Shown: positions 13 through 22,370, counted from the stretch's first letter. The stretch is 32,000 bases of DNA from Candidatus Electrothrix yaqonensis (GCA_047651235.1 CP178758.1:1470001-1502000); one strand, 5' to 3'. The notes: generated by a model not told the origin, from the letters alone. A program made the numbers and translations.

Positions 13-2601
13 TCATACCGGCAGTTTTATGGCAAACAGGGTGGCGTCCAGATTGGTTCCATTCAGTAGGGTATGTCGGAGGGCGGCCTTATACAGATCA
101 GCACCGTAGAAGTTGGCATCGCAGCAGTTACTTCCTTCAAGCCGGGCATGACGGAAGCGGGCCTTGAAGGCGTTGCTTTTGTACAGCGAACTCTGGCGCA
201 GATCACTGTGCATCAGGTTGGCCTGCCGCAGCGAGGTGCGGCTGAAATCTGCCCGGCGGAAATCACATTGAGCCAGCATGGCCCGGTCAAGCATCCCGTG
301 CCGGAGAACGGCATCCGGAAACGCGGATTCGCTCCAGGCAAGCTGTGCCATTTCCGCCTCACTGAAATCAGCCCTGAGCAGCGAGGTGCTGTTGCATTTG
401 GACCGGCTTAACTTGGCTCTGCAGAAGATCACCTCTTCGCCTTCAGCCTCGGCAAACCAGGCGCCTTCCAAATTGCCGCCGGAGAAATCCGCTCTATCCA
501 GCAAAGCCCGGTTGAAATTTACCCGGCGCAGATCCGCCTCCGCACAACGGACTGCGGTGAGATCGGCTCCCTTGAAACCGGCCTGCTGCAGATCGGCTTT
601 GCGGGCATCGACCTCTGTCAGCATACAGGCATCAAATTCAGCCCGAATTCCCTTGACCTCTGCCAAACAGGCGCGGCTGAAATCACTTGTATCAAACCGG
701 GCTTTGCGCAGATCAGCTCCGGTAAAATCAGCACCGCTCGCCAGCATTGCCGTAGCAACGCAATCTTGGAGACGGATGCCGGTCAGCACGGCATCGGAGC
801 AGTCTGCCCTGCTGAGCAAGGCTCCGCTGCAGTCCGCCCTGCGCAGCGAGGTTCGGCTGAAGTTTACCCCTTCAAGCACAGCCCCCCGAAAATCAGCCCG
901 GTCCAGCTTCACGCCGGAAAGATCCAGGCCACTCAGATTCAGCCCGGCCAGAGACCGGCCACAGGCATGGGCCGCCAGCACCTCCTCTCTGGTCATGACC
1001 GCAGTCAGGGGTAGATTACTGCCCGGCCTGTCCGGCTGGTTTTTAGGTTCCGCACCGCCGCTCTGCTGCGCTTGGCGTTCAAGGGCCTGCATTTCAGCAA
1101 ACAGTGCCTTATCCTCAATGCCGTAGGATTTCATGGCGGCAATGGCCGTGGCAATGCGGGCACTGCTGTTTTTCTTTGCAGGTTTGCCTGCCTGTGCGAG
1201 GATGCTGTCTGGCTGCAGATCTTTCGGGTTCAGCCCTGTCCGCAGCAGCATGGTATCCAGCTTCTTATGCAGATGCGCGGACCGTTGGGCAAGGCGGGCC
1301 GGGGTCAGCGGTTTAGCTCCCTTTCCGGCTTGGGCAGCAGCCGACTGTCCGAGCAGCTCATCTGCCGAGATGCCGAAGGCAGCCAGCAGCGGGGTCAGTT
1401 TTGTCTTGGCTGCTGCTGTTTTTTCCGCAATGGCAGCAGCAACCGGGTCGAATTCCGGAGTACCACCTTTGGCCTCAGCAGCTGTTGCTGCTTCCTCTGC
1501 TTTTGACGATGAGTCAGATTCCGGTTCCGGCTCATCAACGGCTACCTCTTCTGCCTCTGCATCCGGCAGCCCGAAGATACCGGCATAGCAGATACCTGCC
1601 TCGGCAGGTGGTTCAGCCAGCGGTTCCAGGGCAGCGGCAAGATAATAGGCATCCGTGTCCCATTCCGGCAGGTGAGCCAGTCCGGCCCGCCAGATCAGGA
1701 TGCCGGTTTCATGGTCGGGAAACAGCCAGAGCGTATCCAGGCGGCATTGCAGCTCAACAAAGGTGTGCTCTGCGGCATGATTGCCCAGAAAACAGCGGCA
1801 ACGGCGACCGGGGAGCTGTGACTCTATGCGGGAACGCTCAGGGTGCAGATTGTGCAGCAGCACCGGTTCATCCCCCTGGAAGAAACCGGGAAAGCGCTGA
1901 TCCAGCGGGGCCAGCTGGAACAGCCGGGGAGAGGCATCCGCAGGCGGTTTGGGCCAGCGGCGGGCAAGCCAGTTTTTGTCGAGGCCACCGACAAGAGCGC
2001 GGCGGGAGGGCCAATCCAATCCCTCCGGGCCGAAACCCACCGGTCGTTGCTGCTCAGAGGGGAAACCGATCAATCTGTCCGGATGCTGGATATTGGGCAG
2101 GGGTTTTCGTCTTCTGCCGTCCAGACAGCGGACCGGCATCCTGCCCCGACCGGCCGGATTGTCGTATCCGGGGGCACCGCCGAAGGACCGTTCCCAGTCC
2201 AGCTCCATCTTTTTGAACGGAACCGGAAAGGTAACCTTGTCGTTACTGAGCCACCAGCGGTCCCCGAAGACGAGCAGATTTTTTGCCACGCTCCCTACCT
2301 TGGCCCTGACCGGACAGGCCAGCGTAGACTGAGCCTCAGGGGAGTAACATGTTCCGGCCACCAGAAATTCCCCTGTCGGTTTGGGCATCCCCAGATCAAA
2401 AGGGACAGCATCCAGTTCTTTGACCGGCTGCCAGAACTCGCCTTCCTCCAGCAGCTCCGCCTTCGGATCAAGACGGAATCCGGCCAGCATGGTCACGGTC
2501 AACTGCTGTTTGTCCCTGTCCCTGCTCTCCTTGTCCAGGCGGTACAGGAGCGACAGGGTATCCGGTTTGCGGAGGAAAAAATTCGGCTGCTTCACGCTCA
2601 T
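13..2601 (-). CDS. T6SS-associated DUF2169-domain protein fused to a long C-terminal pentapeptide-repeat domain
   Basis: 862-aa ORF. The N-terminal ~330 aa resemble DUF2169 proteins as I remember them (GEFLVAGTCY, LLVFGDRWW). An Ala/Glu/Pro-rich acidic linker follows, then ~330 aa of tandem pentapeptide repeats (ADLxxAxLxxAxF pattern). It lies 43 nt downstream of clpV on the same strand. Another minus-strand ATG at position 8 suggests the operon continues off-window. Confidence 0.8.
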   Translation of the reverse strand: MSVKQPNFFLRKPDTLSLLYRLDKESRDRDKQQLTVTMLAGFRLDPKAELLEEGEFWQPVKELDAVPFDLGMPKPTGEFLVAGTCYSPEAQSTLACPVRAKVGSVAKNLLVFGDRWWLSNDKVTFPVPFKKMELDWERSFGGAPGYDNPAGRGRMPVRCLDGRRRKPLPNIQHPDRLIGFPSEQQRPVGFGPEGLDWPSRRALVGGLDKNWLARRWPKPPADASPRLFQLAPLDQRFPGFFQGDEPVLLHNLHPERSRIESQLPGRRCRCFLGNHAAEHTFVELQCRLDTLWLFPDHETGILIWRAGLAHLPEWDTDAYYLAAALEPLAEPPAEAGICYAGIFGLPDAEAEEVAVDEPEPESDSSSKAEEAATAAEAKGGTPEFDPVAAAIAEKTAAAKTKLTPLLAAFGISADELLGQSAAAQAGKGAKPLTPARLAQRSAHLHKKLDTMLLRTGLNPKDLQPDSILAQAGKPAKKNSSARIATAIAAMKSYGIEDKALFAEMQALERQAQQSGGAEPKNQPDRPGSNLPLTAVMTREEVLAAHACGRSLAGLNLSGLDLSGVKLDRADFRGAVLEGVNFSRTSLRRADCSGALLSRADCSDAVLTGIRLQDCVATAMLASGADFTGADLRKARFDTSDFSRACLAEVKGIRAEFDACMLTEVDARKADLQQAGFKGADLTAVRCAEADLRRVNFNRALLDRADFSGGNLEGAWFAEAEGEEVIFCRAKLSRSKCNSTSLLRADFSEAEMAQLAWSESAFPDAVLRHGMLDRAMLAQCDFRRADFSRTSLRQANLMHSDLRQSSLYKSNAFKARFRHARLEGSNCCDANFYGADLYKAALRHTLLNGTNLDATLFAIKLPV

Positions 2602-2644: not shown

Positions 2645-5425
2645 TCAACTCTTATCCTGAACATCCTGAAACTGCATGGTGAATTCTCCCTGCTCATCAA
2701 CATCCAACGTTACCCCGGCAGGGAGCTGACCGCCGCTCATCTGGGTAAGAATTTCTCTGGAAAGCCGGGGCAGGACATTGCCGTTCAGGATGTATTCGAT
2801 ATTCCGGGCCCCGGTTTCCACCTCGGTACAGCGGGCCGCGATCTGCTGCACCACCTTGTCGCCCCAGCTGAACTCCATCCTGTTGTTGTTCATGAGCATT
2901 TCGCGCAGACTCTGGAGCTTGATCTCCACAATATTTTCCATAGCATCCCGATCCAAGCTGAAAAAGGGAATCACGGTGGTCCTGGCCAGCAGGGCCGGTT
3001 TGAAATACTGCGAGAGCAGCGGCCGCACCGCCCCCATGACCGCCTCCATCGGCAGGCGGTCCTCCCCGCCGGTCATCTCCTGGATCACATCGGTGCCCAG
3101 GTTGGAGGTGAGGATGATAATGGCATTGCGGAAGCTGATTTCCTTGCCCTCGCCGTCAGTGAGCGTCCCCTTATCAAAGACCTGATAAAACAGGTTCATG
3201 ATATCGATATGCGCCTTTTCCACCTCATCGAGCAGGACAACGCAGTAGGGCATTTTCCGCACTGCCTCGGTGAGCATCCCGCCCTCGCCGAATCCCACAT
3301 AACCGGGAGGAGAACCGATCAGGCGGCTGACTGTATGGCTTTCCTGAAACTCGCTCATATTGATGGCCACCACGCTTTTTTCGCTGCCGAAGATCAGCTC
3401 GGCCAGCGCCAGACCGGTGGCTGTCTTGCCCACCCCGGACGGCCCGGCAAAGAGAAAAACTCCTTGGGGCTGATGCGGATTCCTGATCCCGGCCTTGGCT
3501 GCCCGGATGACCTCTCCCATCGCAGAAAGCGCGTGATCTTGGCCCTTGATCTTGGTCTCTATGATGGATTCAAAATTGACGATATTGTCGGCCTCGTCGC
3601 GCAGCATTCGGCCCAGCGGGATACCGGTCCAGTCAGCAGCCACATGGGCCACAATATCCGGGTTGACCTCGATCTGGATCAGGGGATGTTCGCCCTGCAG
3701 CGCAGATAGGGCTGCATCGGCCTCGGCAAGATGTTGGCGCAGGGTATCAGGAGAAACGGTTTCTTCGGCTTTAGCAGCAGATTTTGAGGACTCTGCGTTC
3801 TCTGGAGAAAATTCAGGTTTATCGGGTTTATCAGACTGAGGCTCCTCAGGAACATCGGTTTCCGCTGTTTCGGGAGGAGGCTCGGTAGCTGCCTGTGCGA
3901 TAGCGTGCACAGCATCGTGCAGTCGGTTGCGCAAATCAACAACCCGGTTTGCCGCCTCCCGCTCCTGCTGCCAGCGTTCTGTCAGGGCCTGCCGCTGTTC
4001 ATCCAGCCTGCTGATTTCCCCGCCGATCTCTGCAAGACGTTCTTGGTCAATCGCTACATTATTCTCCTGATCCCGCAGCATGGCCTGCTGTTCCCGCTCC
4101 AGGGCGGCTATGGAGCGCTCCAAATCTTCAAGGGAAGGCGGCTTGGTAGCCAGATTGATGCTGATCCGGGCACAGGCCGTATCCAGCAGGTCAATGGCTT
4201 TGTCCGGCAGGAACCGGCCGGAAATATAGCGGTCAGCGATTTCGCTTGCGGCCTGCACCGCATCATCCCGGACAATGACCTTATGGGCTTTTTCATAACT
4301 GTCCTTAATGCCGCGCAGGATCAGGGTGGTGGTCTCGGTGTCCGGTTCATCGAGCTTGACCAGCTGGAATCTGCGGGCCAAGGCCGGATCCTTTTCAAAA
4401 TATTTTTTATATTCGGTCCAGGTGGTGGCCGCAATGGTGCGCAGCTCTCCCCGGGCCAGAGCCGGTTTAAGCAGGTTGGCTGCATCGCCGCTGCCCGCCG
4501 CGCCGCCGGACCCCACCAGGGTATGCGCCTCATCAATAAAAAGAATGATCGGAGTTGCCGACTGTTTAATCTCAGTAATTACCCCGTTCAGGCGGTTTTC
4601 AAATTCGCCCTTCATTCCGGCACCGGCCTCCAGCAATCCCATGTCCAGAACCAGCAGGGAGGTTCCCCGGATCGCCTCCGGCACATCGCCCTCAACAATG
4701 CGCCGGGCCAGTCCTTCCACCACAGCGGTCTTGCCGACCCCGGCCTCTCCCACGCAGATGGGATTATTTTTTCGCCGCCGTGCCAGGATATCGATCATCA
4801 GGCGGATTTCTCGATCCCGCCCGAAGACATGATCAATCTTGCCCTGGCGGGCATTTTCGGTAAAGTCTTGGCAGAAACGGGCCAGAAAGCCTTCCTTGCC
4901 GGTCACGCTCTGCTTCCCTTCCTCCCGGATGCGTTCTTCCCTGCTGACAGCCTCCACTGAGGGTTTGGTAATGGTCCAGAATTCTTTCAGCAGATCTTCC
5001 CGGTTGATGGTCCGGAGCAGGTCCATGTACTGACCGGTTGCATAGTAGGCGGGACGGGAAAGCAGGGCGAGGAGCAACGCGCCGGAACGAATCCGCCGAT
5101 CATCCAGATCAATGGAGGCGATCAGCCAGGCCTCTTGGACAAGGTCCAGCAGCATGGGCGAAAACACCGGCTTGCCTGAATTGCCGCCGGTATAATCTTC
5201 CAGCACCTCGTCCAGTTTCTTGCGGACCTGCCCAGCCTCAATGCCGGAATGCTCAAAGATCAGGGGCCAGTCAGCATGAAGTTCGTCGAGCAGTTTGAGC
5301 AGGAGATGTTCAATGGCCACCTCGTAATGGGTCCGGGAAACAGACAGCCCGGCTGCGGCCTGGAGTGCATTGGTACAGAACGGGTTGAGGTGCAGCAGTA
5401 ATCCCTTGATATCGACGATGACCAT
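2645..5425 (-). CDS. tssH: Type VI secretion AAA+ ATPase ClpV/TssH
   Basis: 926-aa ORF with a ClpV-like N-domain. It has two AAA+ modules (Walker A GEAGVGKTA and GPSGVGKTA) and a coiled-coil middle region. An acidic ~50-aa insertion (EPPPETAETDVPEEPQSDKPDKPEF...) lies before the second module. Confidence 0.9.
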   Translation of the reverse strand: MVIVDIKGLLLHLNPFCTNALQAAAGLSVSRTHYEVAIEHLLLKLLDELHADWPLIFEHSGIEAGQVRKKLDEVLEDYTGGNSGKPVFSPMLLDLVQEAWLIASIDLDDRRIRSGALLLALLSRPAYYATGQYMDLLRTINREDLLKEFWTITKPSVEAVSREERIREEGKQSVTGKEGFLARFCQDFTENARQGKIDHVFGRDREIRLMIDILARRRKNNPICVGEAGVGKTAVVEGLARRIVEGDVPEAIRGTSLLVLDMGLLEAGAGMKGEFENRLNGVITEIKQSATPIILFIDEAHTLVGSGGAAGSGDAANLLKPALARGELRTIAATTWTEYKKYFEKDPALARRFQLVKLDEPDTETTTLILRGIKDSYEKAHKVIVRDDAVQAASEIADRYISGRFLPDKAIDLLDTACARISINLATKPPSLEDLERSIAALEREQQAMLRDQENNVAIDQERLAEIGGEISRLDEQRQALTERWQQEREAANRVVDLRNRLHDAVHAIAQAATEPPPETAETDVPEEPQSDKPDKPEFSPENAESSKSAAKAEETVSPDTLRQHLAEADAALSALQGEHPLIQIEVNPDIVAHVAADWTGIPLGRMLRDEADNIVNFESIIETKIKGQDHALSAMGEVIRAAKAGIRNPHQPQGVFLFAGPSGVGKTATGLALAELIFGSEKSVVAINMSEFQESHTVSRLIGSPPGYVGFGEGGMLTEAVRKMPYCVVLLDEVEKAHIDIMNLFYQVFDKGTLTDGEGKEISFRNAIIILTSNLGTDVIQEMTGGEDRLPMEAVMGAVRPLLSQYFKPALLARTTVIPFFSLDRDAMENIVEIKLQSLREMLMNNNRMEFSWGDKVVQQIAARCTEVETGARNIEYILNGNVLPRLSREILTQMSGGQLPAGVTLDVDEQGEFTMQFQDVQDKS

Positions 5426-5568
5426 AGCGTTCTCCTCCGATAAAGTCGCTATATAATGAAAGATAAAAGGATCAAATAAAGGACATTGTTCTGATATATA
5501 TTTCTTTCTGGCAATAATGAGACAGGGAAATCGTGCGGCCCACTGTGCAGTATCGCAATATTACAGCC

Positions 5569-6585
5569 TTATTCAGCCTGCAGCGTCATATACCGGGTAA
5601 AGCACTCAACCTGACCAGATTGATCAAACTTATCTGCTTCATCAGGTTTATCCGCTTCATCGCCAGATTCATCCTTGGCTTTCGCTTTATTCCGGTACAA
5701 ACAGTGAAGATACTTTTCCGCCCTGTGCAGAGCGATTGACGAGGGGGAGAGAAAGATCTCCACCCGCCTGTTGGCCGCTGATTTCTTTTCCTGCTCAAGA
5801 TATTCTATCGGCTGTGTTTCTCCGACGCCCAGACTTTCTATCTGCAATGCATTGGGAGAACCGCCCGCTTTTTCGATTTCCTTCTGCAGTTCAGCAACAG
5901 TGGCGTCAGAACGCTCCTTGCTGAGGGTCATGTTGTCCCTGTCCGTCCCCACACTGTCCGCATGTCCGATCACAGTAATATTTTTATACGCAGTGGCTGC
6001 GGCAAGAACATCATGGACAAAATGCTGCGTAATGATCGAGCCTATTTCTTTCAGCTCGCTGGAATTAAAGTTAAAATATAAATCCTTCTTAAACCGGACA
6101 AGCAGTACAGGTACAATGTCGGCTTGCTGCTGTTCTGTGGATTTTTCTGCAGAATGCTCTGGATTTTTTTTATCTGCTGCCTGCTTCTCTTCTTTTTTAT
6201 TTTGTACAATCTTGTTCACCGGCACATAAAGCAATGCAGCAGCAAAAGCTTCAAACGGATCAAAGTCAACTTCGATTTCAGCAAATGATTTCTCTACAGA
6301 GACAGACAGTGCTGAAAGGATTTTTACGACTTCCTCTGCAGTTTCTTTCCCGGCAGAACATGAATCGCCGACCACAATTATATCATCTTTGAACCCTTCA
6401 TCCTCTGCAAGCCGGATGCATTTTTTTCTCTTGTCTCTGCTCTGATTGTCCGGAATTGTGCAATTTTCGTCAACGAGACAGGAGGCTGTCTCCTGCTGCC
6501 AGAGGTAATCCGGCGGCTCATTAGCATAAGCAGAACTGAGCAAAAGGAAAAACAGTATGACTGTGAGAAAAAGTATTTTATGCAT
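5569..6585 (-). CDS. Exported OmpA-family protein (C-terminal OmpA/MotB peptidoglycan-binding domain)
   Basis: 338-aa ORF. It has an N-terminal signal peptide (MHKILFLTVILFFLLLSSAYA/NE). The C-terminal motif is TVIGHADSVGTDRDNMTLSKERSDATV...NRRVEIFL. The gene looks AT-richer than the flanking T6SS genes by eye. Confidence 0.8.
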   Translation of the reverse strand: MHKILFLTVILFFLLLSSAYANEPPDYLWQQETASCLVDENCTIPDNQSRDKRKKCIRLAEDEGFKDDIIVVGDSCSAGKETAEEVVKILSALSVSVEKSFAEIEVDFDPFEAFAAALLYVPVNKIVQNKKEEKQAADKKNPEHSAEKSTEQQQADIVPVLLVRFKKDLYFNFNSSELKEIGSIITQHFVHDVLAAATAYKNITVIGHADSVGTDRDNMTLSKERSDATVAELQKEIEKAGGSPNALQIESLGVGETQPIEYLEQEKKSAANRRVEIFLSPSSIALHRAEKYLHCLYRNKAKAKDESGDEADKPDEADKFDQSGQVECFTRYMTLQAE

Positions 6586-6684: not shown

Positions 6685-7407
6685 TTACCGCGCCGCAAGC
6701 CCTTCAGTCAGCTCCTGCTGCAACGATCGGATCAGGGCAATCGGATCGTTGCTGTTACGGATAGGTCTGCCGATGACCACATGATCCGCACCGTTGATGA
6801 TGGCCTGTTTTGCCGTGGCGATTCGTTTCTGGTCATCCGAGCCGTCATCCACATTGGCACCCGGTCGGATCCCCGGCGTGACAACCAGAAAATTTCCTCC
6901 CAGATCGTTACAGAGCGGTTCCGCTTCCAAGGCAGAGGAAACAACGCCGTCGCAGCCGATCTCCAGAGCCTTGCGTGCCCGGTGCAACACCAAGTCCCGG
7001 ACGCTCCCGGTCATGCCCATAGCCCGCATATCCTCCTCATCAAAGCTGGTGAGCACGGTCACGGCAAGAATCTTCAGCTCACTGTCCTTATCCTGCACAG
7101 CAGCCCGGAGAATCGGATCATTGCCGTGCACCGTGGCAAAGGTGACGCCCCGATTTTTCAGCTGCTCCACTGCGAGCCGCACGGTTTCCGGGATATCAAA
7201 AAACTTAAGGTCCACCATGACCTTGTTGCCGCGCCGGATAATGGCATCAATGGTGTTGAACCAGCTGGCCAGAAAGAGCTGCAGCCCCACCTTGAAGAAT
7301 TTTATCTCGCTGTCTAACTGTTCAACCAAGGCCATTGCTTCGTCATACGAGGTGACATCAAGGGCAAAAATGATCCGTTCGTTCAGGGGAATGTTTTTCG
7401 GTGTCAT
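6685..7407 (-). CDS. pyrF: Orotidine 5'-phosphate decarboxylase
   Basis: 240-aa ORF with the hallmark motifs IFALDV, DLKFFDIPETV, VVTPGIRPG, DDQKR and ADHVVIGRPI. Confidence 0.9.
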   Translation of the reverse strand: MTPKNIPLNERIIFALDVTSYDEAMALVEQLDSEIKFFKVGLQLFLASWFNTIDAIIRRGNKVMVDLKFFDIPETVRLAVEQLKNRGVTFATVHGNDPILRAAVQDKDSELKILAVTVLTSFDEEDMRAMGMTGSVRDLVLHRARKALEIGCDGVVSSALEAEPLCNDLGGNFLVVTPGIRPGANVDDGSDDQKRIATAKQAIINGADHVVIGRPIRNSNDPIALIRSLQQELTEGLAAR

Positions 7408-7598
7408 AGAAGAAAGGAAAACTACCCCGCCATAAAAGACAGGGTATTAAACAGAAGTGATTTTCACAATACGCCACAGGCAGCTGGGTTTTGCCGAGCC
7501 TTCATCAGGAGCAGCCTGGCTCCAAGCCAAGCCGCAAAGGGGGCGCGGCAGACCGGGCCGTGATTCGGCGGTGCCGCTCAACCGTCCCACAGTTGCCG

Positions 7599-8060
7599 CT
7601 ATTGACACTCCCAGCCCCAATACCCGGCACAGGTCACCTGCGGGATGACCTTGCCGCCGCAGGACTGGTAGCAGTACCGGTATTCCTCGTTGCACTGATC
7701 AAATTTCGGCTCAGGGCAGGGCTCCGTGGTATCCAGACAGGGAGCAACCCCGGCGGCAAGGCAGTTCTCAAGTTTCAGACCGGCCATTTCGTTGCGGTGC
7801 CTGCAGTCCTTCTGGTCAGACTCCAAGTCATCCTTGCAATCCGATCTTTTCTGGGCACACTGCATAATACACATCCGTCCCTGCTCCGTGTCAGGAGGCT
7901 CCAGGGTATAATCGGTCTTGTACACCGGGCCGCAGGCGCTCAGCCCGGCCGCGATCAGTACCGAGATGCCTATGCTCTGCAGAAATCGTCTGCTGCATAT
8001 CCGGCTGAATCTGTTCATTGAATCTGCTGTGTTCATAACTGTGTTCATAACTGTGTTCAT
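7599..8060 (-). CDS. Cysteine-rich putative lipoprotein
   Basis: 153-aa ORF. An SD-like aaggaagg lies 5 nt upstream of the ATG at 8060. A signal sequence ends in the lipobox-like LSAC. The mature part has more than 12 Cys. I recognise no family. Confidence 0.55.
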   Translation of the reverse strand: MNTVMNTVMNTADSMNRFSRICSRRFLQSIGISVLIAAGLSACGPVYKTDYTLEPPDTEQGRMCIMQCAQKRSDCKDDLESDQKDCRHRNEMAGLKLENCLAAGVAPCLDTTEPCPEPKFDQCNEEYRYCYQSCGGKVIPQVTCAGYWGWECQ

Positions 8061-8063
8061 AAC
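8028..8063. repeat. Perfect 12-bp tandem repeat x3 (tgtgttcataac)
   Basis: Read directly from the sequence. On the minus strand each unit encodes MNTV and carries an in-frame ATG (8060, 8048, 8036) at the 5' end of the lipoprotein gene. Confidence 0.9.
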
Positions 8064-8099
8064 ACCCTTCCTTTTATTATTTGTTTATAGCAATAGAGA

Positions 8100-8600
8100 T
8101 TACCTGTTCTGCAGCTTTTCCGTTATCAGATCGTAAAGACAGTTGCTGGTTTCCCGGACAACCTGCACACAATGCCTGCGCGTGCTGTTCGGGTCGTTGC
8201 GGAACGTATGGACAGCTTTCCAGTCCTTCCAGTCCACTCCGGCAATATCAGAGCAGTTGATCCCGCCGTACTGCTCCGTAATTTCTGCAAACTTCTGCAC
8301 CATCGCATGACTGATACCGCCCATCTTCGGATGATTATCCTGCTCAGGTGCTGTCTTTCCCAAAGTGAACCCGATGGCTGCCAGGGCACCGGACAAGGCC
8401 CCGCAGACCTGTCCGCTGCTCCCCATGCCTCCGGCAAAGGGCGCCATCGCCGCAATCAGCTCTGGAGATGGCGCTTTCTCCTGAAAAAGCTCCGCACAGG
8501 CGCAGAGCACGGCCTGGCTGCAGTGGAACCCCTGAGCAAACAGCTCAACGGCTCTGGCCGCCATTCTTTCCCGCTCTGTTGTGATTTTTATTGCTGTCAT
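8100..8600 (-). CDS. C_GCAxxG_C_C family protein
   Basis: 166-aa ORF with HCSQAVLCA near the N-terminus, VCGALSGA (CGAxxG) in the middle, and a C-terminal NCSD/HCVQV Cys pattern. Confidence 0.8.
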   Translation of the reverse strand: MTAIKITTERERMAARAVELFAQGFHCSQAVLCACAELFQEKAPSPELIAAMAPFAGGMGSSGQVCGALSGALAAIGFTLGKTAPEQDNHPKMGGISHAMVQKFAEITEQYGGINCSDIAGVDWKDWKAVHTFRNDPNSTRRHCVQVVRETSNCLYDLITEKLQNR

Positions 8601-8766: not shown

Positions 8767-8792
8767 TGAAGGCACCAGGATTCGGCCTGCTC

Positions 8793-8878
8793 CTGTTTTA
8801 TTCAGAAGTATGGTGAAATCCCGGCAAAGTGTCAACCTGTTTCTTTGACTTCTTATTTTGTATTGACACAAGGCGGGC
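8793..8878. repeat. 86-bp direct repeat, copy 1 (partner at 15560-15645)
   Basis: Manual alignment gives 82/86 identical positions in the same orientation. Weaker similarity continues ~13 nt to the left. The track ORF starting at 8829 begins inside this repeat. Confidence 0.9.
8807..8835 (-). promoter_or_regulatory. Putative sigma70-like promoter inside repeat copy 1, reading toward the C_GCAxxG_C_C gene
   Basis: On the minus strand: TTGACA (8835-8830), a 17-nt spacer, then CATACT (8812-8807). An inverted repeat GTGTCAA(8829-8835)-N27-TTGACAC(8863-8869) and a third TTGACT box (8845-8850) overlap it. Confidence 0.4.
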
Positions 8879-8957: not shown

Positions 8958-10664
8958 ATGATCAGAGTACTGCGAAGAAATAACGAAACCCTCCAGATAG
9001 GCACGTTACAGGACAGGCCCTCTATGAAGTCGGCAGCCCCTTTTGCAGGTTACGAAGCTACAGTTGTTTGTCTTCGTCGCTTTATGCATGATGCCTATAA
9101 TATGACGGTGCTGCGGAAAGTACTGTATGAGGATTCATATCAGTTCGGTATTCATTCACTGAGTGATCAGGAGGTTATTTCTCAAGTCGCCAGGAAGGCT
9201 GTCCGGGGTCAGATATTTATTGCACGGGGAAAAGCGGCTCAATATGGTGGCGGTTCTTCATCTCCTTCGGTGAAAGAGGTTGTACCGGTTGAAGGGAAGA
9301 AGTGGAGCAAGAAAGAGTATGTCAAGTCATTCGTAAAGGAGCATGAGGTTGAGCATTCTGTGCCGCCGGAAGAAAACTGGGTGGAACTCGAACATTGTGT
9401 TGAATATCCGGAAGACTGGAGCGATATAGAACCAGCGTGTGATGTACCTTACACGATTACCTTTGGCGATGGCAGTGTAGATAAAGGTTATCTTGACGAG
9501 AATGGATACGCACGGCATGACGGAATACCACCAGGGCAAGTCACCGTAGAGTACGAAAAGGATGTTGACAAGGAAATAGCGGAACTACACGCACAGTTGA
9601 AAGCCGAGCTCAATAAAATTCTGGAGATAGAAAGAGAAGAGGCTCGGAATTTAGAACAATCTTTGCAGGAAAAAGGCTCCTTCGGCAAGGCGTGGGAGTA
9701 TACAAAGAGCTTTGGTGGAGGAGCCTGGAAGGCTACAAAGGACCTTGCCGAGTTTGCCTATGAAGGATATAAACGCAACCCTATTGTTAACCCAATAGGT
9801 GCGCCATTACTGTGGATCGAGGACTTGAAGAATGGAAAAAAGGTTTACGATCAGCTCGCAGCGATTCCAGATGAGGATATAGAAGCTATTGTAATCTTAC
9901 TTCAGGATGCAGCTACTTACGATATACTTTATGATTTTGCGAAAGATTACATTGCTGCGCAGCACAGCCTCGAATGGAGTGAGACTGCGGGAACCGCAAT
10001 ACCGGAAATAATTATTGCTGTACTTACAGCGGGCATCGGAACTGCTGTAAGCGGCGCATCAAAAGCACGGCATGTCAGCAAACTTCGAAAACTTAAAGGA
10101 TTGTGGCAGAGGCTTGTCAAAGCGCTTAAGCGACGAAGATTTCGTCACAAAAAATCAGGCCCTCATAAAACACGCATTAAGTCAAAGAGTACCCCAACTT
10201 CCGGGGAGAGCCCAAGACGCAAACTGCACACGTCGCCAAAGGGGCCGAGCAGGACGACGCCGAGCAAGGCAAAGGGAGGGAAGCCGCGCGGCGATCGGAC
10301 ACCTGAGACCGGCTCACAGAAACGAAAACACAAGCGCGAGAACGAATCGGCCAACACGCTTGCTGACGCCGGTTATGATATCGACCAAGGACCTCACAAG
10401 AAACCCAACGGCAAGAAGCCGGACTACAAGATCGAAGACGAGTATTTCGACTGCTTGGCACCGGATACGGACAACGTCGATCAAGTACGAAAAGGCATCT
10501 CAAGAAAAGTAAACTCGGAACAGGCGGACCGTATCGTGCTGAACTTGGATGACACGAGCTTGGAACCGAGCGACATCAGCGAGATGCTGCGGCGAAAGCC
10601 AAAAAATGGTCTTAAGGAAGTGATCGGCGTCAAGAACGGAAAGATCACGCAGATATTTCCATAA
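8958..10664 (+). CDS. Polymorphic-toxin-like protein with a C-terminal CdiA-CT (tRNase-type)-like domain
   Basis: The last 108 aa (10338-10661) fit the pattern I recall for CdiA C-terminal tRNase-type toxin domains: ENESANTLADAGYDIDQGP..KKPDYKIEDEYFDCLAPDTDNV...QADRIVLNLDD...GLKEVIGVKNGKITQI. A hydrophobic TAGIGTAVSGA segment and a ~75-aa Lys/Arg/Pro/Ser-rich linker precede it. The start is uncertain: 8958 or 9024, and 8829 lies inside the repeat. Confidence 0.6.
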   Translation: MIRVLRRNNETLQIGTLQDRPSMKSAAPFAGYEATVVCLRRFMHDAYNMTVLRKVLYEDSYQFGIHSLSDQEVISQVARKAVRGQIFIARGKAAQYGGGSSSPSVKEVVPVEGKKWSKKEYVKSFVKEHEVEHSVPPEENWVELEHCVEYPEDWSDIEPACDVPYTITFGDGSVDKGYLDENGYARHDGIPPGQVTVEYEKDVDKEIAELHAQLKAELNKILEIEREEARNLEQSLQEKGSFGKAWEYTKSFGGGAWKATKDLAEFAYEGYKRNPIVNPIGAPLLWIEDLKNGKKVYDQLAAIPDEDIEAIVILLQDAATYDILYDFAKDYIAAQHSLEWSETAGTAIPEIIIAVLTAGIGTAVSGASKARHVSKLRKLKGLWQRLVKALKRRRFRHKKSGPHKTRIKSKSTPTSGESPRRKLHTSPKGPSRTTPSKAKGGKPRGDRTPETGSQKRKHKRENESANTLADAGYDIDQGPHKKPNGKKPDYKIEDEYFDCLAPDTDNVDQVRKGISRKVNSEQADRIVLNLDDTSLEPSDISEMLRRKPKNGLKEVIGVKNGKITQIFP

Positions 10665-10752
10665 GCCCTTGCGATACCTTTGACGCAGCTCGATCTCATT
10701 TATGACGAGTGAAGGATCCGGCAAACCTTTTTTGCAAACGGGAGCAGACACA

Positions 10753-11166
10753 ATGGCAATTGATTATTTTCTTACGCTTCACCGGTTCGGCTCGGACGCC
10801 AACGAGGTGCGGGTTCGGGAGTTCCTGCTGCACGAATTCCCGCTTACCGATCATGTGGATACCGGGATGCTGACCGGACCCGGCCTGAGCGTGAACGTGT
10901 TTATCGATGACGACAACGTTGACGGTACGACCGAGGGACCGAAGCACCCAGATCTGGTAATCAGCTTTCGCATTTCGAAGCATGAACTAGATACCCACCT
11001 TGGGTACCAAGGCATGCGGCGTATCGTAGATCGGGTAGTACGCTCGTTCGATGTGGAACTGCGTGTTGGTGATGAATTTGATCAGTATTTCTACTTGACG
11101 AAGACGGTCGGAAAAGTGGTAACCGAGCACCGGGACCATGACTTTTGGACGGTGGGCACCGATTAG
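10753..11166 (+). CDS. Putative cognate immunity protein
   Basis: 137-aa ORF starting 89 nt after the toxin stop, with a GGGAG box 8 nt upstream of the ATG at 10753. The call is positional only, and I recognise no family. Confidence 0.45.
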   Translation: MAIDYFLTLHRFGSDANEVRVREFLLHEFPLTDHVDTGMLTGPGLSVNVFIDDDNVDGTTEGPKHPDLVISFRISKHELDTHLGYQGMRRIVDRVVRSFDVELRVGDEFDQYFYLTKTVGKVVTEHRDHDFWTVGTD

Positions 11167-11209: not shown

Positions 11210-11238
11210 AAATCAAAAGGGTCAGACTCTATTGATTT
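11210..11238. repeat. Island palindrome copy A (aaatcaaaagggtcagactctattgattt)
   Basis: The outer arms AAATCAA/TTGATTT are reverse complements. The copy sits between the immunity gene stop (11166) and the stop of the convergent vapC fragment (11241). Confidence 0.85.
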
Positions 11239-11240
11239 TC

Positions 11241-11501
11241 TTACGGCCCGAAAGGATCGATTAACTCAATCCCACAACTCTCAAAGTCACGTATGTTGCG
11301 GGTCGCCAAACTCAGATGGCCAGCTTGAGCAACAGCGGCGATTTGACCGTCAGGAAGACTCATGGGACGGCCCTTCTCTTTGCACCGGCCCATAATTTTG
11401 GCATAAACACGAGCTGCGGACTTATCAAACACAATGATACGCCCTGCAAAGCCTTGGGCGATAAATTACTCAAAGCGTGTCTCAAGTATATCTTTTTCCA
11501 T
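11241..11501 (-). pseudogene. 5'-truncated VapC/FitB-like PIN toxin fragment with an in-frame stop
   Basis: The translation is MEKDILETRFE*FIAQGFAGRIIVFDKSAARVYAKIMG...DGQIAAVAQAGHLSLATRNIRDFESCGIELIDPF. This matches only the C-terminal half of FitB/VapC proteins. The N-terminal PIN residues are absent and a TAA stop occurs at codon 12. Confidence 0.6.
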
Positions 11502-11720: not shown

Positions 11721-11972
11721 ATGCCATCTTTACAAGTGAGAGAGTTGCCGGTAAATATTTATCACCGTTTGCAAAAAAGGGCGAAAGCGGAACATCGCAG
11801 TCTTGCTCAGGAGGCTATCGTTACCCTGGCAAGAGGCATGGAGACCGCTGTTTCCCATAAAAATCGCAGGAGAAAATTGCTTCGGACTATTGCTGAACAA
11901 ACATGCTTTGTAGGCGAAAAAATGGCATCTGTGGATCCTGTTCAACTTGTCAGGGAGGATCGTGAGCGATGA
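11721..11972 (+). CDS. FitA/Arc-type ribbon-helix-helix antitoxin (VapB-like)
   Basis: 83-aa ORF with the N-terminus MPSLQVRELPVNIYHRLQKRAKAEHRSLAQEA, typical of FitA-like antitoxins. Its stop overlaps the downstream PIN gene start (ATGA). Confidence 0.8.
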   Translation: MPSLQVRELPVNIYHRLQKRAKAEHRSLAQEAIVTLARGMETAVSHKNRRRKLLRTIAEQTCFVGEKMASVDPVQLVREDRER

Positions 11973-12370
11973 TCGCTGTCCTTGATGTAAGTGCGGCAGT
12001 GGAAGTTGTTCTGCAACGCCCTATAGCAGGGCAGTTGAATAGGTATCTCAGTGAGGCGGACTGGGTGATCGCACCGACTCTGTTTATTTCGGAAGTCACG
12101 AATGTTTTTTGGAAATATCAGCGGTTGACAGACCTTTCTTTGCAGGACTGTGAGCGAGGCCTTGAACAAGCTATTGCTCTGCCTGATGATTTTATTGATG
12201 AACATGATTTCTTTCGAGAGGCTTTCAAGCTATCATCTACCTTGGGTCACAGTGTTTATGATATTATGTATTTGATCGCGGCTCGAAGAAATAATGCTGT
12301 CCTTTTAACCTTAGATAAAAAATTAAGCAGAACTGCCAAGGAATGCTCCATTGAGGTAGCTGAATTGTAG
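11969..12370 (+). CDS. vapC: PIN-domain toxin VapC
   Basis: 133-aa ORF with IAVLDVSAAVE near the N-terminus and YDIMYLIAA...LLTLDKKL at the C-terminus. It is translationally coupled to the upstream antitoxin. Confidence 0.8.
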   Translation: MIAVLDVSAAVEVVLQRPIAGQLNRYLSEADWVIAPTLFISEVTNVFWKYQRLTDLSLQDCERGLEQAIALPDDFIDEHDFFREAFKLSSTLGHSVYDIMYLIAARRNNAVLLTLDKKLSRTAKECSIEVAEL

Positions 12371-12374
12371 AACG

Positions 12375-12403
12375 AAATCAAAAGAGTTAGACTCGATTGA
12401 TTT
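12375..12403. repeat. Island palindrome copy B (aaatcaaaagagttagactcgattgattt)
   Basis: It starts 4 nt after the vapC stop. A second ttgattt follows at 12411-12417. Confidence 0.85.
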
Positions 12404-12454: not shown

Positions 12455-12483
12455 TTGACAAACCCAACGACCAAGCATATGCT
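12455..12483 (+). promoter_or_regulatory. Putative promoter/operator of the second vapBC operon
   Basis: TTGACA (12455-12460), a 17-nt spacer, then TATGCT (12478-12483). A perfect 10-bp palindrome AGCATATGCT (12475-12484) overlaps the -10 box, as expected for an autoregulated TA operator. Confidence 0.5.
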
Positions 12484-12533
12484 TGAGTATATGCAGGCAA
12501 CTCCGATTCCGCTTAAAACAAAGGGAGGCTCAT

Positions 12534-12770
12534 ATGCAGACAGAACGACACGTCCGCCTGTTCCGTAACGGAAGCAATCAGGCAATTCGTATTCCGCGTG
12601 AATTCGAGTTGGAAGGAAATGAAGCCGTCATCCGCAAAGAAGGTAACAGGTTAATCATAGAACCGGTGATAAAAACCGGCTTGGCCGCCCTGCTGGCCTC
12701 CTGGAAGCCCCTTGATGAGGATTTCCCGGAAATAGACGATACTCCTGTCACACCGGAAGATATCTTTTGA
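12534..12770 (+). CDS. vapB: AbrB/SpoVT-type antitoxin VapB
   Basis: The ATG at 12534 is preceded by AAGGGAGG. The sequence MQTERHVRLFRNGSNQAIRIPREFEL is typical of VagC/VapB antitoxins. The track start at 12483 (TTG) is probably too far upstream. Confidence 0.8.
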   Translation: MQTERHVRLFRNGSNQAIRIPREFELEGNEAVIRKEGNRLIIEPVIKTGLAALLASWKPLDEDFPEIDDTPVTPEDIF

Positions 12771-12771
12771 A

Positions 12772-13182
12772 ATGAACGAATACAGATACCTGCTGGATAC
12801 CAATATCCTTTCAGACATCATAAAAAATCCCGCCGGATCTGTCGCACAAAAGGTGACCCGTCCTCATATTGAACCGGCCTGCTGCACCAACCTGATCGTG
12901 GCCTGTGAGCTGCGCTACGGAGCCTGTAAAAAAGGGTCTCCCCGACTCACGGCAAGAATCGAACAGCTCCTGAACACCCTGCCAGTACTTCCTCTGGAAG
13001 AAAATGTCGCCCATCAATACGGGGAAATCAGGACTACCTTGGAGCGTGTCGGTCAGCCCATCGGGGGCAACGACCTGTTGATCGCCGCTCATGCCCTTAC
13101 CCTGCAGCTGACCGTTGTTACCGCAAACCTGCGAGAATTTACTCGGGTTCCGGGTCTGGCGGTGGAGAATTGGCTGGATTGA
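12772..13182 (+). CDS. vapC: PIN-domain toxin VapC
   Basis: 136-aa ORF starting 1 nt after the antitoxin stop. It has YLLDTNILSD, GGNDLLIAAHAL and VVTANLREF motifs. Confidence 0.85.
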   Translation: MNEYRYLLDTNILSDIIKNPAGSVAQKVTRPHIEPACCTNLIVACELRYGACKKGSPRLTARIEQLLNTLPVLPLEENVAHQYGEIRTTLERVGQPIGGNDLLIAAHALTLQLTVVTANLREFTRVPGLAVENWLD

Positions 13183-13211: not shown

Positions 13212-13345
13212 ATGACCATGCACAGAATAATCCATGACAATCTGGATAAAATTACAGCATTGTGTAAACAGCATAATGTCAGGTCGTTGTTTGCATTCGG
13301 CTCGAAAATCAAAGGCTCAGACTCGATTGATTTCAACACAATAAT
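13212..13345 (+). pseudogene. N-terminal fragment of a MNT-type nucleotidyltransferase (type VII TA antitoxin family)
   Basis: The translation (MT)MHRIIHDNLDKITALCKQHNVRSLFAFGS matches the N-terminus of minimal nucleotidyltransferases up to the catalytic GS motif. Similarity then ends inside palindrome copy C, and no HEPN partner is present. Confidence 0.5.
13316..13343. repeat. Island palindrome copy C (aaatcaaaggctcagactcgattgattt)
   Basis: It has a 1-nt deletion relative to copies A, B and D. Similarity to copy A extends ~12 nt to the left (attcggc vs attccggc). Similarity to copy D extends ~12 nt to the right (gatttSaacacRa). Confidence 0.85.
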
Positions 13346-14079: not shown

Positions 14080-14108
14080 TGATCAAAAGGGTCAGACTTG
14101 ATTGATTT
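14080..14108. repeat. Island palindrome copy D (tgatcaaaagggtcagacttgattgattt)
   Basis: It lies 32 nt after the RelE/ParE stop. The left arm is slightly degenerate (gatcaa instead of aatcaa). About 200 nt of non-coding DNA follows before the convergent transporter gene. Confidence 0.8.
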
Positions 14109-15481: not shown

Positions 15482-15559
15482 ATTCTGTTCCTCTGTTGCC
15501 GGATTCCGGAGAGACGGCGAGGTATTGCAGCATCGGTCCGGCCGCTGTCCGGTCCGCTT

Positions 15560-15645
15560 CTGTTTTATTCAGAAGTATGGTGAAATTCCGGCAAAGTGTC
15601 AACCTGTTTCTTTGACTCCTCATTTTGTATTGACACAAGGCAGGC
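15560..15645. repeat. 86-bp direct repeat, copy 2 (partner at 8793-8878)
   Basis: 82/86 identical to copy 1. It lies 78 nt upstream of the transporter start codon on the minus strand. Confidence 0.9.
15574..15602 (-). promoter_or_regulatory. Putative sigma70-like promoter inside repeat copy 2, reading toward the AI-2E transporter
   Basis: It has the same TTGACA-17-CATACT arrangement as copy 1 (15602-15597 and 15579-15574). A GG-N10-GC (caGGttgacactTTGCc) sigma54-like alternative overlaps it. GTGTCAA-N27-TTGACAC sits at 15596-15636. Confidence 0.4.
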
Positions 15646-18360: not shown

Positions 18361-18939
18361 TCAGTAACACCTGTCATCTACATAAGGGTCCATTTTTTCG
18401 CAGCCGTCAGAGCATTGCTCCCGCACCTGATAGTCGCCGTACTGGCAGTAATACAGTGTATCATCATCCAACGAGGAATGGATACTGCTCCAGCTATAAC
18501 TAACAGTATCAGGCATGCAAAAGTCCAAGAAACACTCTCCTGGATTTACAATTTCTGGAACGTTCTCTTTTGCTTGCATTTTAGCAAAATAATCCAGATA
18601 GAGGTCATTACAAGATAAAGGCCAATAGAAGATTCCAATCTTTGAGCATAAATCTTCTATCTTTGACTCCCATTCTTTTTTATACCAAACTGTATCATCG
18701 ATATCTTTCCCGTCAGCCCCTTCTGGAGTTTCTACCCAATCCTGTACATCACTTAGTGTCACACAGTTATTGTATATAGCGGAGCCAGTGCTATACCTGT
18801 GAGCAGCCCGTTGAGTACGAAGACCGCAGACTTCATGCTCGTCACTATTTCTACTTTGGCACTCACAAAGGCTGTGGTAATAATTTGCAATTCGGTTGTT
18901 TCTCATATGCGAAATCAATCGAAGCTTGCCTCTTTTCAT
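18361..18939 (-). CDS. Hypothetical Cys-rich protein, possibly 5'-truncated by the adjacent IS remnant
   Basis: 192-aa ORF in AT-rich DNA. Its first ~25 codons overlap the transposase C-terminal frame, so the true start is unclear (an alternative Met is at 18906). I recognise no family or signal peptide. Confidence 0.3.
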   Translation of the reverse strand: MKRGKLRLISHMRNNRIANYYHSLCECQSRNSDEHEVCGLRTQRAAHRYSTGSAIYNNCVTLSDVQDWVETPEGADGKDIDDTVWYKKEWESKIEDLCSKIGIFYWPLSCNDLYLDYFAKMQAKENVPEIVNPGECFLDFCMPDTVSYSWSSIHSSLDDDTLYYCQYGDYQVREQCSDGCEKMDPYVDDRCY

Positions 18940-19675
18940 GCCGTTGACGAAGCTGTCTTATAACTTCATCTTCGTTTACATCTCGACGTGGAAGAATTGA
19001 CTTGAGTAATGTTGTTATATCAGCGCAACTCAATAACGGGACACCGACTTGATGGTATAATCGTTGCTCGACCATAAACAACATGGCCATCATGACCATA
19101 GTCATATGATGATGCCAAGCCAGCCATCCCCGAGCCCTTAGCCTTAAGACAACGTTCCTTGTCATCCGTCCAGCTTTTCGGTAAATACAGCCGACAGTCG
19201 ATCGGCGTTGAAAAGCGACCATATCCCAAAGTTGCAAACACTACTACTTGACAGTTGTCGGTTTTACCAAGCTGCCCGCACCATTGACGAGAAACCCCAA
19301 CAGACATTTTACCCTTTTTGGGTATCCCGGATTCATCAATAAAAAGAGCGCTATCTTCCTTTCCTCCAAAAATGTTATCCGCATCTTTAGCTACTTGGTT
19401 GTTTACAGGACGCCAATCCCAGTTCGAGTCGGAAAGAAAATACTGGAGGGGCTCATATTTAACGCCCGGAACCTTTTCCTCCATACGTTCCATGTTTTTT
19501 TGTCAGCCTGGAATAAACCTTTCAAGTATTGGAATGCTTTATCTGACAAACTTACCGTATGTCTCTTAAAAAAATGATGATATCTTTCGTGAAAAGACGT
19601 AAGTTGCCGGGCGATGCCGGTCAACTCAAAGAATTTGTCATGGGGACTTCTTTTTTCGGGGCTGGGAGCGTTCAT
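18863..19675 (-). mobile_element. Decayed IS701-family insertion sequence (transposase pseudogene)
   Basis: Three minus-strand ORF pieces lie in three frames (19675-19403, 19493-19020, 19237-18863). They carry IS701-like motifs (YLKGL, LQYFLSDSNWDW, GVSRQWCGQLGKTDNCQVVVF, RGWLAWHHH). The frames meet near 19135-19145, where roughly 200 aa of the DDE core are missing. Confidence 0.7.
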
Positions 19676-19821
19676 AAAAAGAATAAAGTTATAATCAGGG
19701 CGATTGACGGGTATTTTTTTGATAGCTGTTATCAGGTGCTATCTTGATCAAAAAGCGATAAAATCTTCCTAATGAAAGATACAACTTTATCCGGATATTG
19801 CAAGAAGTTTTTACAAATAGA

Positions 19822-22294: not shown

Positions 22295-22370
<76 letters not shown>

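Follow-up and report, generated by a model that had tools for sequence, protein, structure and literature searches.

How would a CdiA-type tRNase reach the cytoplasm of a neighbouring cell when the protein that carries it has no annotated delivery module? This question is raised by a toxin gene and the small gene behind it in a stretch of 32,000 nucleotides from Candidatus Electrothrix yaqonensis (GCA_047651235.1 CP178758.1:1470001-1502000; in the following, the window is this whole stretch). The original prediction, made from the DNA alone, had proposed that the two genes are either a new type of type VI secretion system (T6SS) cargo effector with its immunity gene or an orphan module awaiting recombination onto a delivery gene. 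We consider it likely that they encode a T6SS effector-immunity pair and that the effector is a cargo effector of new build. There is nothing unusual about the toxin and immunity modules, which can be placed in known families (the latter putatively); what is new is the predicted carrier, which is a combination of a lineage-restricted putative loading domain with a widespread, unnamed T6SS pre-toxin domain. The two genes and the parts of the effector are listed below with the evidence on which each was delimited (aa, amino acids; AF2, AlphaFold2 model).

8958..10664, plus strand: effector gene, 568 aa and stop codon, a three-module mosaic (long open reading frame (ORF), start set by homologue conservation and DNA identity)
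8958..9335, plus strand: N-domain, aa 1-126, with an α/β fold at aa 1-93 and then a Gly/Ser-rich linker, presumed loading module (homologue search, AF2)
9372..9545, plus strand: small β-sandwich, aa 139-196, the N-terminal part of a widespread core (AF2 strands at 141-199, alignments)
9546..10151, plus strand: helical pre-toxin domain, aa 197-398, of an unnamed family (profile A3, AF2 helices spanning 203-398)
9996..10058, plus strand: hydrophobic Gly/Ala-rich helix AIPEIIIAVLTAGIGTAVSGA, aa 347-367, with T-G-G-x-G (Kyte-Doolittle 1.1-1.5)
10119..10337, plus strand: hyper-basic disordered stretch, aa 388-460 (composition), its 3' half from ~10251 lying in the toxin cassette
10251..10661, plus strand: toxin cassette, aa 432-568 (Pfam, PDB match, AF2 fold, mosaic breakpoint)
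10338 onward, plus strand: catalytic PD-(D/E)xK tRNase domain, from aa 461 (residues E461, D489, D498, K517)
10753..11166, plus strand: immunity gene, 137 aa, a putative distant SitI3-family member (sub-threshold NCBIfam match, SitI3 matches of relatives, synteny)

Toxin cassette, immunity gene, and the effector mosaic

In Pfam and NCBIfam searches with the whole 568 aa, only CdiA_C (PF18451) was recognised and no second domain; the match covers aa 486-563 and the whole profile, positions 1-81 (E 3.9e-15; score 56.2 bits, cut-off 26.6 bits). The closest solved relative is PDB entry 4g6v_A, the CdiA-CT tRNase of Burkholderia pseudomallei 1026b (Bp1026b; E 3.4e-18). The AF2 model superposes on it with an E-value of 3e-8, a target-normalised template modelling (TM) score of 0.82, and a root-mean-square deviation of 2.8 Å over 130 columns at 41% identity, and a fold search of the PDB with the full AF2 model matched the toxin part alone. 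A review names E187, D214, D223, and K242 as the active site of 4g6v, Mg2+ as its cofactor, and tRNA-Ala as the substrate (PMC9086364). Because these four residues align to E461, D489, D498, and K517 (counted by hand on the PDB alignment), all four catalytic residues are present, and their spacing is as in 4g6v except for one inserted residue between the first two. The likeness to Bp1026b CdiA-CT(II) thus extends over ~130 aa and comprises the PD-(D/E)xK tRNase fold as well as the conserved E/D/D/K. Of note, the C-terminal 108 aa had been assigned to the CdiA C-terminal tRNase type from the DNA alone, and the significant toxin-family match in the profile search bears this assignment out. We conclude that the C-terminal 108-137 aa are a predicted Mg-dependent PD-(D/E)xK tRNase of the Bp1026b CdiA-CT/SitA3-CTD type. 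Both of these toxins cut the acceptor stem of tRNA-Ala, upon which growth stops (PMC5562445).

The 137-aa ORF downstream had been placed in the immunity position with a Shine-Dalgarno sequence of its own, and this placement stands: GGGAG lies ~10 nt upstream of its ATG, a gap of 89 nt separates it from the toxin ORF, and the same gene lies 3' of homologous toxins in four other loci (L001, L005-L007). Ten homologues with 63-100% identity all begin with MAIDYF. The protein had no match in Pfam, and a PDB sequence search with the immunity profile found no solved relative, including CdiI-1026b, to which it is thus unrelated. The NCBIfam SitI3 model was matched by 5 of 11 close relatives (best E 0.0014), and several relatives and syntenic genes have precomputed matches to PF28107 SitI3, some at E<=1e-5. 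Compared with L001, the toxin is 83% and the immunity protein 75-76% identical, while the values for L005 are 71% and 36%, respectively. Because of the synteny, the SitI3 matches, and the identities falling together across loci, the toxin/immunity reading is as solid as sequence analysis allows, and we hold the tRNase/immunity assignment with high confidence. Specifically, the SitI3-like protein is the predicted cognate inhibitor of the tRNase in the producer.

The same two families, PF18451 for the toxin and, putatively, SitI3 for the immunity protein, make up SitA3/SitI3 of Myxococcus xanthus, for which cleavage of tRNA-Ala(UGC) by SitA3-CTD and neutralisation by SitI3 are proven (PMC5562445, PMC8546572). 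We therefore considered that the protein is a SitA-like lipoprotein toxin that is moved between cells by outer-membrane exchange. SitA3 is an outer-membrane lipoprotein with an escort domain of ~375 aa and is delivered by TraAB, whereas the N-terminus of the window protein (MIRVLRRNNETLQIG...) is hydrophilic in the hydropathy profile with neither a signal peptide nor a lipobox seen in it, and the SitI3 match of its immunity protein is weak. Moreover, there is no sitB-like gene upstream, where we instead find a divergent gene of the C_GCAxxG family, and the upstream modules of the protein are linked to T6SS (see below). SitA escort domains have been reported only in Myxococcales (PMC5562445). 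Taken together, these points render a SitA-like toxin extremely improbable.

The long ORF has three candidate starts, GTG 8829, ATG 8958, and ATG 9024, and the database gene call (P0001) begins at 9024. Because a DNA identity of ~95% to a gene of Candidatus Electrothrix marina sets in within few bases of ATG 8958, and because the 22 residues gained from this codon (MIRVLRRNNETLQIGTLQDRPS) are kept in relatives only 60% identical, we take ATG 8958 over ATG 9024 as the real start. Only 10 full-length or partial homologues were found among 5.8e9 proteins, and different pieces are shared with each of them. The toxin cassette (aa 432-568) is 71-90% identical in P0002-P0005 and 24-29% in P0007, which has another C-terminal domain, while the upstream core with the linker (aa 139-431) is 17-35% identical in P0002-P0005 and, in its middle part, 59% in P0007. 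Finally, P0006, P0008, and P0009 have only aa 1-125 in common with the effector, at 89-90% identity, and their C-termini are unrelated. At the DNA level, the N-terminal homology to the Ca. Electrothrix marina locus (L004) breaks off abruptly near codon 125 and contains no frameshifts. We conclude that the predicted effector is encoded by a full-length, intact three-module gene with sharp joints, and the proposal of an orphan module awaiting recombination does not fit such a gene. The three modules and the immunity gene would be swapped by recombination at these joints, by which the arsenal would be diversified.

One of the joints lies within what had been described as a hyper-basic linker upstream of the toxin. 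The stretch is indeed there, with 27 K+R against 3 D+E in 73 aa and 86% K/R/S/P/T/G/H, but about half of it belongs to the toxin rather than to a linker. Specifically, aa 432-460 keep 76-90% identity in relatives that share only 17-35% with the effector further upstream, and because high identity starts there in otherwise diverged relatives, these residues are part of the mobile toxin cassette. In front of them, aa 399-431 are a variable disordered joint in which the predicted local distance difference test score (pLDDT) of the AF2 model is <50. The first 50 aa after the core have a net charge of +13 compared to a family median of +2.

T6SS ties of the two upstream modules

The region upstream of the toxin had been described as unrecognised and as having none of the usual delivery modules. 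This holds for annotation, i.e. the region is absent from Pfam and NCBIfam and has no delivery domain or motif, but it does not hold for homology: both the N-domain and the core have relatives beside or fused to T6SS genes, and the protein carries two unannotated modules with ties to T6SS. As for motifs, a regular-expression scan of 185 pooled sequences, including the window protein, found no MIX central motif and no prePAAR motif, and PAAR and VENN strings were absent from the window protein and present in only three other proteins of the set. The window polypeptide also has no Pfam match to PAAR/DUF4150, VgrG, or an Rhs domain, one of which a specialised effector would carry. The comparison of the N-terminal region with T6SS markers that the original prediction had suggested thus returned neither a MIX nor a prePAAR motif, nor similarity to the one FIX protein used (see below).

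Searched alone, the N-domain gave 12 word candidates and 6 matches, of which the named ones are from Candidatus Electrothrix, and a scan of 185,579 species genomes (one genome each) gave one locus, in Ca. Electrothrix marina. AF2 models aa 1-93 with a pLDDT of ~80, and a PDB fold search with the N-domain model gave no match (best E 0.5). In two of the five loci with context (L004 and L008), the N-domain gene is the first gene after a PAAR-like operon with the order vgrG, DUF2169/pentapeptide, pentapeptide/unknown, DUF3540, PAAR-like (Tox-PAAR-like/DUF4150), N-domain gene. In L013, the N-domain lies ~1.4 kb upstream of a vgrG–TPR–Rhs unit, and in L008 and L014 a short stand-alone N-domain protein is followed by a DUF4123 adaptor gene. 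The fifth locus, L015, has no T6SS gene on its 5.9-kb contig, which is cut on the upstream side. In total, at least three unrelated C-termini are preceded by the N-domain, which also exists as a protein on its own.

In being N-terminal to unrelated C-termini and in having a short stand-alone form beside an adaptor gene, the Electrothrix N-domain resembles RIX, PIX, and MIX. It differs from these domains in being confined to Ca. Electrothrix, in being longer than the 55 aa of RIX, an Arg-rich domain of Vibrionaceae, and in lacking the MIX central motif. Our working hypothesis is that the N-domain probably loads the protein onto the spike: it would dock the effector, either directly or via an accessory protein, on a VgrG/PAAR-like (DUF4150) spike. 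The stand-alone N-domain proteins P0011, P0013, and P0014 comprise 161-181 aa (e.g. L008 10001-10546 and L014 1277-1762), their C-termini share a conserved L-x2-L-K-x-A-A-x2-G-x-P-F-C-E-I-C, and in L008 and L014 further unknown genes follow the DUF4123 gene. These proteins may be secreted adaptors or tethers like the stand-alone RIX proteins.

The operons that N-domain genes follow in L004 and L008 are of a known type: their gene set is exactly that of the class III Tvp spike-assembly system defined in Serratia (PMC13373197). DUF2169/PIPY proteins have been described separately (PMC11883445). As in class III of Serratia marcescens (TvpAB/TvpB/TvpC/Paar1), the window has a TvpAB-type gene beside clpV, and the related Electrothrix loci have a full vgrG-tvpAB-tvpB-DUF3540-PAAR-like set followed by N-domain genes. 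The two differ in that no separate cargo effector was found for the Serratia spike, of which the toxicity tracks with VgrG1, whereas in Electrothrix cargo genes follow the PAAR-like gene.

The second module, the core (aa ~139-398), is widespread. Its β-sandwich aligns with the N-termini of P0002, P0003, and P0010 and resembles a β-sandwich that follows the N-domain in P0006, P0012, P0015, and P0016. The helical domain consists of a coiled coil, a helical bundle, the hydrophobic helix with the TGGxG motif, and a long basic amphipathic helix. Among 1.84 billion representatives, a profile of aa 191-398 (the tail of the β-sandwich and the helical domain; A3), aligned from seven relatives, retrieved 435 clusters at E<=1e-3, of which 300 reach E<=1e-10. 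The core had no match in Pfam, NCBIfam, or PDB sequences, and when a family member was searched against plasmids with tblastn, the single match was weak and irrelevant. F327 and G359 are invariant, L218, T357, E339, D317, G361, G255, and P279 are conserved at >=92%, and the family signature is D-x9-F-A-x-D-Y-x2-A-Q-H-x2-E-x2-E-x2-G-x3-F-E-x-L-L-x3-T-G-G-x-G, followed by the basic amphipathic helix. The hydrophobic Gly/Ala-rich segment that had been noticed upstream of the toxin (~10000-10060) is confirmed at 9996-10058; rather than being a local oddity, it is the most conserved motif of this family of ~435 clusters.

The named members of the core family are from Cellvibrio, Corallincola, Exilibacterium, and gammaproteobacterial metagenome-assembled genomes and are annotated by their toxin domain or as hypothetical. 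In P0083, P0101, and P0129, a complete VgrG carries the core at its C-terminus. In P0057, the core follows a PAAR domain and precedes an Rhs cage, and in P0020 and P0033 it is N-terminal to Rhs. Genes of cargo type are preceded directly by a DUF4123 gene in L002 and by a ketoacyl-synthase (KS)-like gene in L005, L006, and L010, and the stop and start codons of the KS-like genes and the core genes behind them overlap. The KS-like protein is a TvpD/PRK06147-type accessory protein. Its versions from different loci share 43% identity, and a relative of it is encoded in the vgrG–DUF2169–KS-like–PAAR-like cluster of L001, a cluster that also contains one core member. In L005, two core members lie in tandem as an effector array (2812-6035 and 6694-8600), in which P0017, with a KS-like gene upstream and an immunity gene of SUKH-3 type, comes before P0003 and its SitI3 gene.

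We scanned 91 core members with Pfam, and a domain was recognised in only ~1/3 of them. The toxins found are Ntox46, RES, Endonuclea_NS_2, Colicin-DNase, GH-E, WHH, Tox-REase-5/7/9, TNT, DddA-like, Ntox15, Ntox43, Gln_amidase, ADP-ribosyl cyclase, and one metallopeptidase, and one member has a LysM domain. In terms of classes, these are nucleases, NADases, deaminase/deamidase types, and a single metallopeptidase toxin. Cell-wall hydrolases, lipases, and pore-formers were not found in the same 91 members.

Several T6SS domains of comparable position were evaluated as possible identities of the core. FIX lies in front of nucleases that act in the cytoplasm, its genes often come after those of VgrG or DUF4123 proteins, and Phobius predicts a helix in FIX proteins (PMC6688995). 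Like the core, the FIX effectors (V12_14465 FIX-PoNe, VP1415, and Chromobacterium violaceum RhsF) have a domain of ~200-280 aa with a hydrophobic helix before interchangeable toxins that act in the cytoplasm, they occur in cargo, PAAR-like- or VgrG-fused, and Rhs forms, and they have a VgrG or DUF4123 gene upstream. We did not identify the core with FIX: with a single FIX representative, WP_058908675.1 from a Ralstonia megaplasmid (L012:2908-3912), hhalign against profile A3 gave a probability of 0.1%, and phmmer with this protein against the 185 family sequences gave nothing below E 0.1. In addition, the 91 core members scanned include no DUF4150 fusions, which is a difference from FIX. MIX was rejected on the basis of hRxGhhYhh, reportedly its central motif, which had no match in the window protein and 184 related sequences. 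WHIX is set apart by its description as a bipartite domain of ~450 aa with a WHxxxH motif and periplasmic toxins.

Because their relatives in other genomes are fused to or encoded beside T6SS spike and accessory genes, both upstream modules are tied to T6SS, in agreement with the originally proposed T6SS cargo effector of undescribed build. The same ties bear on the origin of the toxin. Because the toxin Pfam family and the best structural relative are from a CdiA protein, the pair could be an orphan CdiA-CT/CdiI module of a type V contact-dependent inhibition (CDI) system, held as a silent reserve for recombination onto cdiA; such orphan pairs are familiar from CDI loci. However, the effector has its own start and 430 aa upstream of the toxin that are homologous to VgrG-, PAAR-, and Rhs-fused and T6SS-adjacent proteins, and its carrier is of T6SS type and not a two-partner-secreted CdiA filament. 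The protein has no VENN motif, no filamentous haemagglutinin/two-partner secretion (FHA/TPS) region, and no haemagglutinin repeats, and there is no cdiB or cdiA among the ORFs of the 32 kb. Moreover, the toxin family is already found on non-CDI carriers such as SitA3 (PMC5562445). We regard a CDI orphan as very improbable and retain the T6SS cargo effector.

Delivery of the effector and the role of the core

In the T6SS reading, the following sequence of events is suggested. A VgrG/PAAR-like spike would be assembled by the class III Tvp system, of which tvpAB lies 6.4 kb away, and the effector would be fired with this spike into a neighbouring cell. There, the hydrophobic TGGxG helix and the basic amphipathic helix of the core would insert in the inner membrane of the prey, and the basic disordered linker and the tRNase would then reach the prey cytoplasm. 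The precedent for the membrane step is Tde1 of Agrobacterium tumefaciens, an Ntox15 DNase with the adaptor Tap1/DUF4123, in which a glycine zipper is needed for permeabilisation of the prey membrane and translocation and not for secretion (PMC10240207). Like Tde1, the window protein is a predicted cargo nuclease with a small-residue-rich hydrophobic helix upstream of the toxin, and some core members carry Ntox15 and use DUF4123. In Tde1, however, a run of GxxxG repeats lies at the extreme N-terminus, whereas the core has a single helix with an invariant T-G-G-x-G turn in a helical domain of 200 aa, and we do not claim homology. By analogy, a translocation role for the core can be proposed only tentatively.

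Alternatively, the core may be a loading or chaperone-binding module that is gripped by DUF4123 or KS-like proteins for attachment to VgrG, which would leave the identity of the protein as a T6SS effector unchanged. The DUF4123 or KS-like gene immediately upstream of cargo-type core genes, with the overlap of stop and start codons, fits such a function. The N-terminal Gly-zipper region of Tde1 also binds Tap1 (PMC10240207), hydrophobic helices of T6SS effectors are shielded by Eag chaperones, and FIX, MIX, RIX, and WHIX are precedents for secretion or loading domains. On the other hand, the core is also covalently attached to VgrG, where loading is not needed, and neither the window gene nor L011 has an adjacent adaptor gene. 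In addition, the exclusive pairing, among the toxins recognised, with toxins that act in the cytoplasm is predicted by an entry role and not obviously by a loading role, yet FIX has the same bias. We consider loading to be about as plausible as translocation, neither reaching even chances, and the core could combine both roles, as Tde1 does.

A broader version of the T6SS cargo effector reading, which we put forward as a possibility that is rather speculative, assigns a function to each upstream module. The helical domain would be a T6SS-specific cytoplasm-entry module for nucleases, NADases, and deaminases, whether cargo, VgrG-fused, or Rhs-encased, and the N-domain would be an Electrothrix loading marker for Tvp class III spikes. 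Such an entry module might, again as a tentative analogy, be a functional counterpart of the CdiA-CT entry domains, the prePAAR transmembrane helices, and the Tde1 glycine zipper.

Several observations weigh against the T6SS reading or the entry role within it. Secretion, toxicity, and neutralisation of the window pair are all inferred. The AF2 models are of medium confidence (pLDDT 68-70), and the match of the window immunity protein to NCBIfam SitI3 (NF040657; E 0.028, 14.9 bits) is below the cut-off of 31. The effector lies outside any vgrG operon in the window, is divergent from the T6SS genes, and has no adaptor gene adjacent. The effector forms no operon with the T6SS genes here, as three minus-strand genes (pyrF, a lipoprotein gene, and a C_GCAxxG gene) lie in between. 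The closeness to a clpV/DUF2169 module, to which the original prediction had pointed, is thus real in terms of distance (3.5 kb to clpV), but the link of the effector to the window's own clpV/DUF2169 genes is one of proximity only. As for the core, the hydrophobic helix is only moderately hydrophobic and has a conserved Glu. Instead of inserting into a membrane, it could be buried in the core of the fold or bind a chaperone. Likewise, where the core is N-terminal to Rhs cages, a loading role fits as well as translocation.

A T6SS toxin with a target in the cytoplasm has to pass the inner membrane of the prey, and how such toxins do so is still an open question. To our knowledge, the crossing devices known are few, namely the prePAAR transmembrane helices and the Tde1 glycine zipper. 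Being compact, strongly conserved, and without annotation, the core would be a concrete candidate for such a device that can be put to the test. It is found alike in VgrG-fused, PAAR-Rhs-fused, and cargo forms, and it would mark T6SS effectors for mining in marine Gammaproteobacteria and Desulfobulbales. Through the N-domain, in turn, a distinct family of cargo proteins is connected with the class III Tvp spike. This spike type was defined only recently and has had no separate cargo effector reported for it; if the assignment is correct, the family in cable bacteria would be the first set of detachable cargo effectors identified for this spike. Cable bacteria are uncultured filamentous sediment organisms, and our data indicate that they carry a recombining T6SS arsenal.

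Surroundings of the pair in the window

T6SS genes lie to the left of the pair, copies of a repeat on both sides of it, and small gene cassettes to its right. The features concerned are as follows.

13..2601, minus strand: TvpAB-type protein of 862 aa with DUF2169 (E 2e-74) and pentapeptide repeats (Pentapeptide E 5e-43), a fusion that marks class III Tvp systems (PMC13373197)
2645..5425, minus strand: ClpV-like AAA+ ATPase of T6SS (Pfam)
5569-6585, minus strand: OmpA-family protein, edge of the T6SS cluster
7599-8060, minus strand: Cys-rich putative lipoprotein between the T6SS genes and the effector (ORF opening with tandem MNTV-MNTV-MNTA; no Pfam match)
8783..8878, plus strand: 96-nt direct repeat, left copy, ending 80 nt upstream of the effector start
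15550..15645, plus strand: 96-nt direct repeat, right copy, 93% identical to the left copy, with sharp ends
11241-11432, minus strand: VapC C-terminal fragment
11721-12370: FitA-like/PIN pair
12483-13182: MazE/PIN pair
11211-11238, 12376-12403, ~13306-13333, and 14081-14108, plus strand: 28-nt hairpin element, an imperfect palindrome (AATCAAAAGGGTCAGACTCGATTGATTT)

The TvpAB, ClpV, and OmpA-family genes are the edge of a Tvp class III T6SS cluster, of which tvpB, DUF3540, PAAR-like, and possibly another N-domain effector gene would lie beyond the left end of the window. Measured from the effector start, the distances are 2.4 kb to the OmpA-like gene and 6.4 kb to tvpAB, with clpV in between at 3.5 kb.

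The effector pair had also been placed at the edge of a repeat-bracketed island, and we find the same: the two copies of the 96-nt repeat, both in divergent intergenic regions, bracket 6.8 kb of lower G+C (44-52% versus 55-60%) with the effector pair at its opening. The segment holds this pair, two toxin–antitoxin (TA) pairs, the VapC fragment, and an AI-2E transporter gene, and no integrase was seen in it. The repeat had no Rfam match and no significant RNA fold, and we found one weak promoter-like site on its minus strand. MazE-like antitoxin genes also lie downstream of N-domain genes in L014, L015, and L004, joined by PIN partners in the first two and, in L014, also by a FitA-like gene, which suggests a conserved variable locus with swappable effector cassettes among Electrothrix strains.

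Such a location raises the possibility that the effector gene is a decaying remnant in a variable island and that the immunity gene alone is useful, as an orphan defence against the toxins of neighbours. The lower G+C of the repeat-bracketed segment, the TA pairs and the VapC fragment in it, a transposase fragment nearby, and the detachment of the gene from a vgrG operon would be in line with decay. By contrast, the ORF of 568 codons is intact, the catalytic and family-invariant residues are all present, and the N-domain is ~95% identical in DNA, without frameshifts, to the copy that lies in an operon in Ca. Electrothrix marina. On balance, a remnant is improbable, and we favour a functional T6SS cargo effector.

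The first copy of the 28-nt element lies just 3' of the immunity gene; the first two copies are 3' of gene cassettes, and the others are in intergenic gaps. None would be expected by chance, and the hairpin fold has z values of about -3 and -2. The element could be an attC-like, REP-like (repetitive extragenic palindromic), or terminator-like cassette boundary.

Further to the right, the G+C content drops to 39-43% (18361-20200), and this trough contains part of a DDE_5 transposase (19020-19493, minus strand) next to an unannotated ORF of 192 aa; this region is probably a decayed insertion sequence. In an Rfam scan of the window, tRNA-Phe (22295-22370) was the only match. It is flanked by genes for a YcaO-TPR fusion protein (20278-22143, plus strand) and a RACo-type corrinoid activase (22719-24767, plus strand), and this region is typical anaerobe housekeeping, unrelated to the effector.

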